DNA of 64,000 nt from Escherichia coli (GTDB taxonomy: Bacteria > Pseudomonadota > Gammaproteobacteria > Enterobacterales > Enterobacteriaceae): the NCBI RefSeq assembly GCF_017348835.2, contig NZ_CP071375.1; one strand, 5' to 3'. Below, piece after piece: positions 24,806 to 36,283 of the stretch (its first letter is position 1; every line of letters starts with the position of its first letter). A model generated the notes under the pieces. That model was not told the DNA's origin, did no database searches, and saw only the letters and a list, made by a program, of their open reading frames with translations. The position numbers and the translations under genes are program-made.

Positions 24806-26167
24806 TTAATCTTTACGCGGGTCGTTGATCGGCTGACGAACCAGGAAGATGTACGCCAGTGCTCCCGCTGCGGTGACGCAACCGCAAATGATTAGTGCCA
24901 GACGGAATGAGTGGGTTGTATCAACAATAAAACCAGTAATGATCGGCGCGAAAGAGGCGCAGATGAAGCTGGCAAAGTTCTGGATACTGCCCACCGACGC
25001 AGTCATGCGAGAAGCAACTGCGACGTGGATCAAGCCCCAGCAGGATGTTCCGGCAAAGTGAATACAGAACAGTGCCATGCCAATCAGCAGAACCGCCATC
25101 ATGGATGTTGTCGCTTGTGGTACTATCAGCGTAAAGGCGGCAGAACAGAACATCCCGGCAATAATGCAGATCTTACGGCTTTTAATCGGAGCCATTCCCC
25201 CTTTGACCAGCCAGTCAGTAACGTAACCGTTGACCAGCATCCCGGCAGCCCCAAACAGGAAAGGGATAGCCGCCATCAACCCTGTGCTTTTTAAATCCAG
25301 GTTATAGGCTGTTTGCAGGTAACCAGGAAGCCAGGCCAGATACAGCCACGCAGTGTAGTTGATGCCACTGAATCCGAGCATCATTCCCCACATTGTGCGG
25401 TTACGGAACAGGCTGCGCCATTCGGCAAAACTGAGCGGATCTCGGCGTGCATTGACGCTACCTGCATTGAGATAAGCTTGTTCAACGGCAGTCAGTTCTA
25501 CGTGCTCGCGGTTGCGATAGAGCATATACCAGCCGATGGCGAGAAAAATCCCCAGTACACCAATGGTAATAAACATCCCGCGCCAGCCCATCACCAGCAT
25601 CATCGCCGCCAGAATCGGTGGGCTTACGGCAACGCCAATGGTAGAAGCTGCGTTGAAGAAGCCCATCGGGCGTCCGCGCTCTTTGATGTTGAACCAGTCG
25701 TTAATGACTTTTACACCGCATGGGTTCATCGGCGCTTCACCAATCCCCATACCGATACGCACCAACACGAACTGCGTAAAGCTGTGCACCATGCCAGACA
25801 TGGCCTGGAACAGTGACCAGAAGAACATCCCCAGTCCCAGCATCAGGCGTGGGCCTTTACGATCCAATAGTGGGCCGCAAGGAAGTTGCGCAATGCCGTA
25901 AGCGAGTGAAAACACGGAGAGCAAAGCGCCGATTTCGGTGGCACTTAATCCCAATTCTTCACGAATCGTTAAATTTGCTACCGACAGCGAACTGCGGTCG
26001 AGATAATTGATTACCGCCGCAAAAAATAATAACAACATGGCGGTGGTTTGAATGCGTTTAATTCGGGTACTGCGTTGAACTAATCCATCTGGTGGCACGG
26101 GAATATCTGCCGACGAAGATGGAGTAAATGAAGAACGCGGATCGAGGGTGATATTTTCTTTTTCCAC
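24806..26167 (-). CDS. lgoT: L-galactonate:H+ symporter (MFS)
   Basis: 453 aa MEKENITLDPRSSFTPSSSADIPVPPDGLVQRSTRIKRIQTTAMLLLFFAAV..., recognised as YjjL/LgoT. Confidence 0.88.
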   Translation of the reverse strand: MEKENITLDPRSSFTPSSSADIPVPPDGLVQRSTRIKRIQTTAMLLLFFAAVINYLDRSSLSVANLTIREELGLSATEIGALLSVFSLAYGIAQLPCGPLLDRKGPRLMLGLGMFFWSLFQAMSGMVHSFTQFVLVRIGMGIGEAPMNPCGVKVINDWFNIKERGRPMGFFNAASTIGVAVSPPILAAMMLVMGWRGMFITIGVLGIFLAIGWYMLYRNREHVELTAVEQAYLNAGSVNARRDPLSFAEWRSLFRNRTMWGMMLGFSGINYTAWLYLAWLPGYLQTAYNLDLKSTGLMAAIPFLFGAAGMLVNGYVTDWLVKGGMAPIKSRKICIIAGMFCSAAFTLIVPQATTSMMAVLLIGMALFCIHFAGTSCWGLIHVAVASRMTASVGSIQNFASFICASFAPIITGFIVDTTHSFRLALIICGCVTAAGALAYIFLVRQPINDPRKD

Positions 26168-26381
26168 GCCGGACTCCTGTATTTATAATTTTAATTGTTT
26201 ACGTAATTGTGCATTACGCAAGGTTGACATTAACGGCAGGTTAAAGTTTTAGGACTTTACTACCGCTCACAAAAACATTTTTAGTCGACTGATTGTGAGC
26301 ATAGGTAAGCGGGAATTTCCCGGTATTTATCTTTTGATAAAACCGTGCACCCGCTAATAGTTTGCTGTTTTTAATCCGTAC

Positions 26382-27296
26382 TTAATGAGCATAACGCGTG
26401 TTCTCATTAATGGATCGAATCATTGATTGTTTCGCTGAATTCAAATGGTTACGGAGCGCAAGGGTGGCATCAAGGTCACTGCGGCAAATCAGAGCGCTGA
26501 GAATGGTCATATGTTCATCGACGGCAATGATATTGCGCTGTTTAAGATCGCTTTCGTCCCATTGATAGTGAAAATGAAAGATGACTGAGATGATCTCAAG
26601 CGATTGATCAAAAAAGATATTGTCGGCAGCTGAAAGCAGTAAGGAGTGAAAATCTCTGTCAAGTTGCGAGAACATGCGAAAGCTATTGCCGATGTTGTCA
26701 CGCAGTAGCCGATGACGTTCGAGCATGGTTTTCGCCTGCAGCCAGCGGGGATCATGATCAGGCAGGTTGAGAAAGTGCTGAAGTGAATGTGTTTCGAGCA
26801 TTTCGCGTAGCTCAAACAGCTGCTCGGCGTAGGATTGATCGAATTGCTTCATGCTCCACTGGCCGCGCTTTTCGCTTTGAATAAGATTATAACGGCCGAA
26901 TTTTAAAAGATATTCTCTTACAACCACCGGGCTGACACCCGCGGCCCGAGCCAGTTGCAGTTCAGAAAAAGTTTCCCCAGGGCGTAACTGACGCTGGTTT
27001 ATCATCGTGAAAAAAGCCTGCTCAAACACTTTGTTTTGTTCACTCATTGAAGCGGTAGTACAGGCGAAACCGTCATCATGGTCAGGTTTACGCGCAATAA
27101 CATAGTCGTTTCCAACCTGCGTTAAGACGCCGCATTCGCGTAAGTGGCTGAGAATATGACGCACTGTAGTGCGGCTGATGTTGTACATTTCCGCCAGCGC
27201 ACTTTGCGATGGAAGTGGGGAAGGGATATGACCCCGCGCCATATCATCAATGACCTGGTTAATCACATTGTGGCGTAAATTTTGTGAACGACTCAT
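26382..27296 (-). CDS. lgoR: GntR-type transcriptional regulator of L-galactonate catabolism
   Basis: 304 aa MSRSQNLRHNVINQVIDDMARGHIPSPLPSQSALAEMYNISRTTVRHILSHL..., recognised as YjjM/LgoR. Confidence 0.88.
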   Translation of the reverse strand: MSRSQNLRHNVINQVIDDMARGHIPSPLPSQSALAEMYNISRTTVRHILSHLRECGVLTQVGNDYVIARKPDHDDGFACTTASMSEQNKVFEQAFFTMINQRQLRPGETFSELQLARAAGVSPVVVREYLLKFGRYNLIQSEKRGQWSMKQFDQSYAEQLFELREMLETHSLQHFLNLPDHDPRWLQAKTMLERHRLLRDNIGNSFRMFSQLDRDFHSLLLSAADNIFFDQSLEIISVIFHFHYQWDESDLKQRNIIAVDEHMTILSALICRSDLDATLALRNHLNSAKQSMIRSINENTRYAH

Positions 27297-33067: not shown

Positions 33068-33541
33068 TTATACGCGAGGGCGCTTGCGGTACAACCATAA
33101 TCCAGGAATGGAAAGACCGATGGATAACGCACCAACAATCGATGAAGCTGTAAGAAAGTTGGTTAACAGGGTAATCATCAACGGTTCGCTGTAACCTAAC
33201 TGGCTGATTTTTACCGCCGAAATCATTGCGGTATAAGCCGATATGCCCGGGAACATAGGGATAACGGCCGCCACGGTAAACACTTTCGGATGCGCCAGAT
33301 ACCAGCGCGACCATTGAATACCAATGGTGCCGACCAGCATAGAAGCCATAAAGGTTGACCACTCAATATTCAACCCGCTGGTCATCAAGATCATTCGGGA
33401 ACCATGACCTATCGAGCCAAGCAGCGCACACCAGCGTAACGCCCGCACGGGAACGTTGAACACCATCGCAAAGCCGACCGCAGGAATGGCGGCGAGGATC
33501 ATATCCTGCGCCAACGCTAACAGAAATTCGATCACACCCAT
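33068..33541 (-). CDS. yjjB: ThrE-family membrane protein YjjB
   Basis: 157 aa from [31 protein letters not shown]...; overlaps yjjP by 10 nt. Confidence 0.88.
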
Positions 33542-34302
33542 CCGCGTAGCCCCCAAATCGTCAGTGCCATCACCACGCCGACGCAGGTAGCCAGTGTCAG
33601 CAGACTGGCGATCGCCCAGCGTGCCAGTCCGGTATTGATGTGGCCTTTAAACATATCGGCGACGGCATTAATCAACGGAAAGCCCGGAACCAGCAGCAGA
33701 ACGCTGGCGGCCATCGCAATGGTGGGGGTATTGCTGAAAGTGGGGAGTTGCAAAAGCAATCCGGAAATGGTGGTGGCGGCGAAAGCGGTGAGGCAAAAGT
33801 TGATCTGTGGATGAAGATGACGTTGTGCCAGCAGCTGGCGGATATACATCGCGGTCGTACTGGCAAAGAAGGTGATGACGGCACCATCCCAGCCACCGTT
33901 ACTGAGTTTACAGAAACAGGCGCAAGAAAGGCCAACCATTAAGGCTACCAGCCATCTTGGGTAACGTAATGGCTGAATTTGGCTAAATCGTTTCTCTACG
34001 CCTTTGTAATCCAGCAGATGATGCTCCGCAAGAATCACAATGTGCTGGACTTCAGTCACCACATGCATATTAATGCCGCGATCGTGATTTTTACGTGTCG
34101 ATGTCAGGCATTGCCCATCTTTAATAGTTGTCAGCACTATGGCGTTCGAAGAGATAGAACTTTCGACACTGTCCATTCCCAGCGCCCGACCCAGTCGTGA
34201 GGAAAGCTCATCAACCAACGCGCTTTCCGCACCATGTTGCAAAAGAAATAATCCACACTGGATACAAAGCCGTGTTACGGCTCGCTGTTGCTCAGTTTGC
34301 AT
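33532..34302 (-). CDS. yjjP: ThrE-family membrane protein YjjP
   Basis: 256 aa from [45 protein letters not shown]... Confidence 0.88.
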
Positions 34303-34922
34303 AACTCGCCCTTTGTCATAGACGTGCTGCGTATTGTTCAGATAATGAGAATCCATTTGTATCATGAAGCACGGTTGTTTTGCGGTAGGTTAAGATCAAA
34401 ATTGCGCTGATTAATCCTGGTTATCGGGACAAGCTCGGTGATAAAAAGCGAATTATCTCTCGCCGCAAACAAACTATCACATGAATATTATCACTATAAT
34501 GAATTTATTGTTTTAGCCTTTACGGGTCAGGATAATAGATAGCTGGGCGCGTTTTTTAGTGTTAACAAGTTAAAATCATCAGATTTTATTGAATAAATAT
34601 TGATTGTGTGATTCCCGCATTCTGCGGGAAGGGATATCATTTAATTATAAATTAAATGAATGTGATTTCTGTTTTTCATTAAGTATTTCTAACAACTTAA
34701 TGTAGATATTTTAAATGTCTCCAGGCTATTTCACCAGGTTATCATTTGATGCTAACCTTCTGACACATGCAGTGGAGTTGTTGTGCAGCAGGAGTATGCT
34801 GATATGAAAGTGAATGCTAAGGATAATTTATTCGCTTAATCTATTAATTTGCTGGAAACATTTAAGGAATGAATATCCTGAATAAACCATCATAATTTTT
34901 AGACAGTGGATGTGGAGGAAAT

Positions 34923-35648
34923 ATGTTGCCAGGATGCTGCAAAAATGGAATTGTTATCAGTAAAATACCTGTTATGCAAGCAGGGTTAAAAGAGGTCATG
35001 AGGACTCACTTCCCTGAATATGAAATAATATCCAGCGCCTCTGCGGAGGACCTTACCTTATTACAATTACGTCGTTCCGGATTAGTCATTGCTGATTTAG
35101 CCGGTGAAAGTGAAGATCCACGTTCTGTTTGTGAACATTATTATTCTTTAATCTCACAATATCGGGAAATTCACTGGGTTTTCATGGTGTCACGCTCCTG
35201 GTATTCCCAGGCAGTAGAATTGCTCATGTGCCCTACGGCGACGTTATTGTCTGATGTTGAACCCATTGAGAATCTGGTCAAGACCGTACGTTCCGGCAAT
35301 ACGCACGCAGAGCGTATCAGCGCCATGCTGACCTCCCCGGCAATGACTGAAACTCATGATTTTAGCTATCGCTCCGTCATTCTCACTCTTTCAGAGCGCA
35401 AGGTACTGCGGCTATTAGGTAAAGGATGGGGCATCAACCAGATAGCTTCATTACTTAAGAAAAGTAATAAAACTATCAGCGCCCAAAAAAACAGTGCGAT
35501 GCGTCGACTGGCAATTCACAGCAACGCTGAAATGTATGCATGGATAAATAGCGCGCAGGGTGCAAGAGAACTTAACTTGCCTTCTGTTTATGGAGATGCC
35601 GCAGAATGGAACACAGCCGAATTAAGAAGAGAAATGTCGCACTCATAG
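34923..35648 (+). CDS. yjjQ: LuxR/FixJ-type transcriptional regulator YjjQ
   Basis: 241 aa with C-terminal LuxR HTH; overlaps bglJ start. Confidence 0.88.
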
Positions 35649-36283
35649 AAAAATGCGTCATGAGTAGTATCGGTATTGAGAGTTTATTCAGAAAGTTTGC
35701 GGGCAACCCTTATAAGCTCCATACCTATACCAGTCAGGAGTCATTTCAGGATGCCATGTCGCGGATCTCGTTTGCGGCGGTCATTTTTTCTTTTTCTGCC
35801 ATGAGAAGTGAGCGCAGAGAGGGATTATCTTGCCTGACTGAACTGGCGATTAAGTTTCCGCGTACCCGGCGTTTAGTTATTGCGGATGATGATATTGAAG
35901 CTCGGCTGATTGGTTCATTGTCGCCATCACCGCTGGACGGTGTATTAAGTAAAGCGTCAACGCTGGAGATTTTTCATCAGGAACTCTTTTTGTCATTAAA
36001 TGGTGTACGTCAGGCGACCGACCGACTGAACAATCAGTGGTACATTAACCAAAGCCGGACGTTAAGCCCGACGGAGAGAGAAATATTGCGCTTTATGTCG
36101 CGTGGCTACTCAATGACACAAATTGCCGAGCAGCTTAAACGCAATATCAAAACGATCCGTGCACATAAATTTAATGTGATGTCGAAACTGGGCGTCAGTT
36201 CTGACGCAGGGTTGTTGGAGGCCGCAGATATTCTGTTATGTATGCGGCATTGCGAAACAAGTAATGTGTTGCATCCATATTAA
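35606..36283 (+). CDS. bglJ: LuxR-type transcriptional activator BglJ
   Basis: 225 aa [47 protein letters not shown]... Confidence 0.9.

Follow-up and report, generated by a model that had tools for sequence, protein, structure and literature searches.

The closest described systems to the locus analysed here are the yjjP / yjjQ-bglJ region of Escherichia coli K-12 itself, the bgl operon silencer and the leuO promoter region. The K-12 locus has been described since 2008 as silenced by H-NS and activated by LeuO, and genome-wide binding studies list it. Stratmann, Madhusudan and Schnetz (2008, J Bacteriol 190:926) are said to have placed H-NS binding at the centre of the region. In two papers citing Stratmann et al. 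2008, yjjQ-bglJ is described as repressed by H-NS, which keeps it off under laboratory conditions, and as activated by LeuO (PMC5025477; PMC3950696). In genomic SELEX, the yjjP<>yjjQ spacer binds RpoD holoenzyme and contains an H-NS site (PMC3946193). H-NS repression, LeuO activation and the binding of H-NS, RpoD, FNR and MarA, in vitro or in vivo, are established in the literature for K-12.

We analysed the corresponding spacer in a 64-kb window, that is, the whole stretch of E. coli DNA under study, and read it, with a probability of about 90%, as a control region that serves yjjP(-yjjB) and yjjQ-bglJ in both directions. The spacer and its neighbours are as follows.

34303-34922, no strand: divergent intergenic region, read as a control region; 620 bp, 34.5% GC
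33532-34302, minus strand: yjjP coding sequence, 256 aa; ThrE-family, putative succinate exporter subunit (PGAP, in the PE164 record and K-12)
34923-36283, plus strand: yjjQ-bglJ operon, 45% GC (ORF list and PGAP)
34923-35648, plus strand: yjjQ, with its start codon at 34923
35606-36283, plus strand: bglJ, downstream of yjjQ and overlapping it

Gene starts were taken from the PGAP annotation of NZ_CP114128.1 (E. coli PE164), which is identical to the window over an 801-bp probe (34200-35000), and the mechanical ORF list agrees with the PGAP gene limits around the spacer. The annotated start codons give exactly the 620-bp extent, 34303-34922, proposed in a first-pass annotation made from the letters alone, and PGAP of the PE164 record and of K-12 bears out its naming of yjjP and yjjQ-bglJ and their divergent orientation. 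The counterpart in K-12 MG1655 measures 618 bp and lies in the same gene context, with 96.9% identity over the full 620 bp. The spacer had also been described as AT-rich, rich in A/T tracts, devoid of ORFs of 60 aa or more and the largest non-coding span of the window, and all four points hold. Its GC content is 34.5% versus 52.5% for the window (z = -4.2), making it the lowest-GC 620-bp stretch there (next lowest, 39.4%); it holds 19 A/T runs of at least 6 nt, or 30.6 per kb versus 7.7 per kb elsewhere in the window (about four-fold), and TpA steps at 88.7 versus 41.6 per kb. The longest ORF inside it encodes 40 aa, and the next annotated non-coding gaps in the 64 kb are 466, 433 and 392 bp (PGAP). 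The runners-up in AT-richness among 620-bp stretches are 5080-5700 (39.4% GC) and 26001-26620 (40.6% GC). On the flanks, yjjQ and bglJ are AT-rich (45% GC) versus yjjP and fhuF (52-53%).

The quoted spacer length hinges on the yjjP start codon chosen: 620 or 557 bp here, 618 or 555 bp in K-12. The shorter values arise because the yjjP frame stays open for a further 63 nt (21 codons) into the spacer, up to an ATG at 34365, giving a 277-aa product. This older start is reportedly the one from which Stratmann et al. (2008) counted 555 bp. The 277-aa form was rejected because two other Escherichia lineages carry changes that break the frame: a one-base insertion in the extension, followed by a stop. 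Among ~80 related loci, tblastn matches begin at residue 1-6 of the 256-aa yjjP in nearly all of those with a yjjP 5' end. Because the extension is broken in two lineages and the matches start where they do, the 256-aa start, and hence the 620-bp spacer, is the better reading. One yjjP looks unusual: that of E. albertii NBRC 107761 (locus 2150-2377) appears to have an internal deletion of ~190 codons, with the first ~10 codons joined straight to the C-terminal segment.

Alignment of the spacers of seven Escherichia lineages (PE164, K-12, three cryptic-clade genomes, E. whittamii and E. albertii) disclosed a three-part pattern, given here with presumptive roles.

34303-34420, minus strand: yjjP-proximal block, 86-88% identity to other Escherichia species and 100% to K-12; presumptive yjjP promoter and 5' untranslated region
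34421-34679, no strand: AT-rich core, 32% GC, 49-54% identity to other Escherichia species and 93% to K-12; presumptive H-NS nucleation zone
34680-34922, plus strand: yjjQ-proximal block, 82-85% identity to other Escherichia species and 100% to K-12; presumptive yjjQ promoter(s) and 5' untranslated region
Flanking coding sequences: 84-90% identity to other Escherichia species and 99.1-99.7% to K-12

By sequence identity, both proximal blocks are conserved to roughly the same degree as the coding flanks. Outside E. coli the core can hardly be aligned at all, and its GC content is held at 30-35% in all seven lineages. Retention of GC while identity falls to ~50% fits a protein that reads composition and shape and not sequence, and the region offers a clean example of a silencer in which base composition is conserved and sequence is not. 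The same partition is visible within E. coli. Among eight strains, ~38 of the 55 variable columns fall in the core (41 of 55 within 34450-34700), with just two in 34700-34850. Across 5426 complete genomes, almost all are >95% identical to the window over the whole 801-bp probe; over 34380-34720, about half are 90-95% identical. The variable sites at 34494-34616 form two or three linked haplotypes in the eight strains, one shared by K-12 and REL606 and another by PE164 and O157, which suggests old alleles shuffled by recombination and not scattered new mutations.

The first-pass annotation had judged the spacer to fit a nucleoid-protein-silenced control region and to be conserved rather than novel biology. 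Both judgements stand, the spacer being a 97% identical orthologue of a K-12 region with published H-NS repression, at a locus already studied in that strain. The binding literature concerns K-12 (for MarA, ETEC), from which the present core differs at ~7% of positions. The H-NS high-affinity motif tCGATAAATT is matched in the spacer with two mismatches only, which is uninformative.

The unusual length of the spacer could in principle be explained by a small RNA gene or small protein gene concealed within it. Nine ORFs of 20-40 aa are present, and two of them in the yjjQ-proximal block, 34715-34807 and 34814-34885, keep their ATG in most Escherichia. Every one of the nine, however, has a stop, a frameshift or a lost start in at least one of the seven Escherichia lineages. 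At E <= 10, an Rfam scan of the spacer found nothing beyond chance hits to lncRNA and snoRNA families of eukaryotes, which scored far under the family thresholds. RNAalifold on the seven Escherichia spacers gave a diffuse, weak fold of long-range pairs, in which covariation contributed only -3.5 kcal/mol over 672 columns and the "compensatory" double changes sit in the unalignable core. No gene is annotated in the spacer of K-12 or PE164. With its ORFs broken, no Rfam hit beyond chance and no convincing structure, a conserved small ORF or sRNA filling the region, the finding that would have spoken against the initial description, did not emerge, and we consider a hidden gene extremely improbable.

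The divergent arrangement of yjjP and yjjQ-bglJ is widespread, with a spacer of 387-709 bp and 32-44% GC in most of ~80 Enterobacteriaceae loci; outside Escherichia, blastn matches the present spacer only at 34680-34718, in Citrobacter. In Klebsiella, Kluyvera, Raoultella, Intestinirhabdus and some Citrobacter, pobA (4-hydroxybenzoate 3-monooxygenase) and the AraC-type gene pobR lie between yjjP and yjjQ as an insert of ~2 kb (about positions 650-2750 of each locus), leaving only ~250 bp upstream of yjjQ. Three further loci carry pobA without pobR, and Pseudocitrobacter has pobA with a shorter 1.8-kb gap between yjjP and yjjQ.

The occupation of this gap by pobA-pobR in other genera makes a deletion in the Escherichia lineage conceivable, and the core evolves almost as if unconstrained; the AT-rich DNA might accordingly be taken for what decay has left of former genes or a mobile element, and not for a functional silencer. 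Yet tblastn with PobA and PobR found no trace of either in the E. coli spacer (best E = 0.47 over 11 residues), and a pobA-pobR relic was rejected. An origin as a repeat or mobile element was likewise rejected: 5424 of 5426 complete E. coli genomes carry the spacer in a single copy (median of one place per genome), so that it does not belong to a repeat family. Neutral decay toward genomic composition would not hold AT-richness, which argues against a remnant given the 30-35% GC of the core in all Escherichia lineages and the 32-44% GC of the spacer in nearly all genera in which the two genes are adjacent. Together with the documented regulatory function of the region, these observations leave a remnant highly improbable. 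Nine records labelled as plasmids (0.37-4.9 Mb, all typed non-mobilizable) also carry the spacer and are most likely mislabelled pieces of chromosome.

Three secondary-structure or palindromic elements lie within the core.

34612-34630, no strand: GC hairpin TTCCCGCAttcTGCGGGAA, with an 8-bp perfect stem and -12.2 kcal/mol in this allele
34637-34659, no strand: perfect AT-rich palindrome TCATTTAATTataAATTAAATGA with 10-bp arms, directly after the GC hairpin
34447-34464, minus strand: weak terminator-like hairpin with a T run, from the consensus scan only, in a segment unconserved in other Escherichia; probably chance

The GC hairpin is the one singled out in the first-pass annotation, whose CCCGCAttcTGCGGG (34614-34628) forms the centre of the stem. 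It could be functional, either as a terminator insulating the divergent units or as a protein-binding palindrome, and several features speak for this: the perfect stem scores z = -2.5 (plus strand) and -4.3 (minus strand), dinucleotide shuffling of the spacer yields a comparably GC-rich perfect hairpin in just 25 of 5000 trials (0.5%), and the right arm, TGCGGG, is kept in all eight E. coli strains. In the window as a whole such hairpins are not rare, at 0.21 per 620 bp. Conservation and context, however, point the other way. The left arm reads CCCGCA in PE164, O157:H7, NC101 and TUM13867 and -TTGCA in K-12, REL606, CB209 and strain 1283, and the K-12 allele folds at just -4.1 (plus) or -1.1 (minus) kcal/mol. 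Other Escherichia species offer no alignable counterpart of the segment, and the 61 nt around the hairpin are identical in only 584 of 5426 genomes. No T/U run follows on either strand, and the terminator scan makes no call there; with the stem lost in half of the sampled strains, the hairpin was rejected as an intrinsic terminator. The reported hairpin is thus present in this strain and is not conserved. A functional role is very unlikely and, because the left arm is missing in four of eight strains including K-12, the hairpin is probably an incidental strain polymorphism inside the hypervariable core.

On the yjjP side, two elements were located in the proximal block, and a footprint alignment of the 170 nt upstream of yjjP covered 20 taxa.

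34386-34399, minus strand: FNR-like box TTGATCTTAACCTA, matching 8/10 consensus positions, the best FNR-consensus match in the spacer
34364-34356, minus strand: TGATACAAA, candidate extended -10 of yjjP by presumed role; it holds the "ATG" of the discarded 277-aa model

TTGATC (34399-34394, minus strand; -97 to -92 from the yjjP ATG), which includes the first half-site TTGAT, is invariant in the 20 taxa, and the element cTTCrTGnTAaAA, whose E. coli form is TGATACAAA, keeps a gap-free, fixed 26-nt distance from it in all of them. The FNR consensus match reaches 9/10 in E. albertii, Salmonella and Trabulsiella. Matches of 8/10 are expected 0.78 times per shuffle, so that the box alone is not significant in AT-rich DNA. 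Published binding data add positional evidence: the FNR ChIP-seq and sigma-70 peaks share a centre at K-12 coordinate 4600950 (Myers et al. 2013, PMC3688515 Tables S2 and S9), which converts to window ~34371, 21 bp from the centre of the FNR-like box. In that study, the sigma-70 signal at yjjP/yjjQ rises anaerobically from 163 to 907 reads, and the FNR ChIP-chip signal goes up from 0.32 to 0.66 in a delta-hns delta-stpA background (PMC3688515, including Table S7); yjjP is named as the likely FNR target, and no FNR-dependent expression change was seen (PMC3688515 Table S9). Given an invariant half-site near the published peak, 34303-34420 can be read as the yjjP core promoter and leader with an FNR-type site.

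The yjjQ-proximal block contains four annotated elements.

34680-34718, plus strand: block conserved to Citrobacter, with TTTCTAAC at 34686-34693 (blastn and 20-taxon alignment)
34752-34738, minus strand: MarA box gcatcaaatgataac, an exact match to the site under the published MarA peak
34799-34827, plus strand: predicted sigma-70 promoter of yjjQ-bglJ, CTGATA-17-GATAAT (consensus scan)
34914-34918, plus strand: Shine-Dalgarno GGAGG of yjjQ, 5 nt before the ATG

TTTCTAAC resembles the RcsB half (wwTTCykA) of the BglJ-RcsB motif at 7/8 positions (motif from PMC3950696), a resemblance that hints at possible autoregulation by BglJ-RcsB or YjjQ. The MarA ChIP-seq peak yjjP<>yjjQ was obtained in ETEC H10407 (PMC5684230). 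A second marbox-like copy at 34632-34650 (direct repeat D1) lacks the GCA element. For the promoter of yjjQ-bglJ, the RpoD genomic SELEX paper gives the identical hexamers CTGATA-17-GATAAT, as a prediction (PMC3946193). By consensus scan only, the spacer holds seven promoter-like sites versus 3.1 expected. The GGAG of the yjjQ Shine-Dalgarno sequence is invariant in 20 taxa, and the fifth base is G in most.

The spacer is also a recurrent insertion-sequence (IS) target in gut adaptation. During mouse-gut evolution of K-12, IS insertions in it recur, with 57% of populations in wild-type mice having one (PMC4674774), and an ageing study again reports it as an IS target (PMC12332998). Adaptive insertions in the mouse gut comprise IS1 at -111, IS2 at -185 and IS5 at -256 from yjjP (PMC5094792 supplement), and the tested IS1 clone raised yjjP expression 2-fold under aerobic conditions (PMC5094792). 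These positions convert to window ~34413, ~34487 and ~34555, just upstream of the yjjP block, at the core edge or inside the core, a placement that fits uncoupling of the promoter from a silencer. Among the matches listed, at least two natural genomes carry IS1 at spacer deletions. In NZ_CP180597.1 (cat-derived E. coli; locus 6067-6816), IS1 lies at a deletion running from window ~34264 into bglJ; lost with it are the 5' end of yjjP, the spacer in its entirety, yjjQ and the beginning of bglJ. In NZ_OY754834.1 (E. coli; locus 4108-4878), IS1B lies ~185 bp upstream of yjjP with the break at window ~34487, approximately the position of the mouse-gut IS2 insertion; the deletion has taken the core together with the promoter and the beginning of yjjQ, leaving an intact bglJ directly behind IS1, an arrangement resembling a laboratory bglJ-constitutive transposon allele.

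For the preferred reading as a bidirectional control region, the following mechanism is proposed. A conserved promoter-proximal module at each end would flank ~260 bp of very AT-rich DNA, the hypervariable core, on which H-NS would nucleate; the resulting filament or bridge would silence the two divergent promoters, whose exact positions are given here as predictions. The LysR-type regulator LeuO would bind within the region and loosen the H-NS complex, thereby derepressing yjjQ-bglJ, and edge factors may act on either side, FNR and sigma-70 at yjjP and MarA at yjjQ. An IS landing between the yjjP module and the core, or an IS-associated deletion of the core, would uncouple promoter from silencer. 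A more speculative extension, which we regard as possible and on balance unlikely, is that the yjjPB promoter is an ancient FNR-type anaerobic promoter kept across Enterobacteriaceae and held nearly off in Escherichia by an adjacent core selected only for composition, with core turnover, haplotype dimorphism and IS-proneness acting as an evolvable dial. The notion of an ancient FNR-type promoter stems from the invariance of the TTGAT half-site at a fixed distance from the TGnTAaAA element. If true, the core would set the strength of yjjPB and YjjQ/BglJ silencing in different gut niches.

The region being already known, its anatomy as drawn from comparison, the discounting of the hairpin and the location assigned to the FNR box are refinements and not discoveries. 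The leuO promoter region, repressed by H-NS/StpA and autoregulated by LeuO, is held off by H-NS as yjjQ-bglJ is, and the two form one loop in which LeuO activates yjjQ-bglJ and BglJ-RcsB activates leuO (PMC5025477). It is a different locus, with a mapped BglJ-RcsB site, whereas the putative counterpart here is only RcsB-half-site-like (TTTCTAAC). The bgl operon silencer of E. coli, likened here by its described regulation, shares the principle that H-NS on AT-rich DNA holds a promoter off, and the relief of repression by IS insertions and LeuO; bgl is also activated by BglJ-RcsB (PMC9678765; PMC3950696). In bgl, an upstream and a downstream silencer surround one CRP-dependent promoter, whereas the two divergent promoters here flank one central AT-rich stretch. 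The nearest relative is the K-12 yjjP / yjjQ-bglJ region, which is the same locus with the same flanking genes and orientation, 97% identity and proximal blocks 100% identical; the difference lies in a core that is 93% identical, in which the CCCGCA allele present here completes the GC hairpin missing in K-12.
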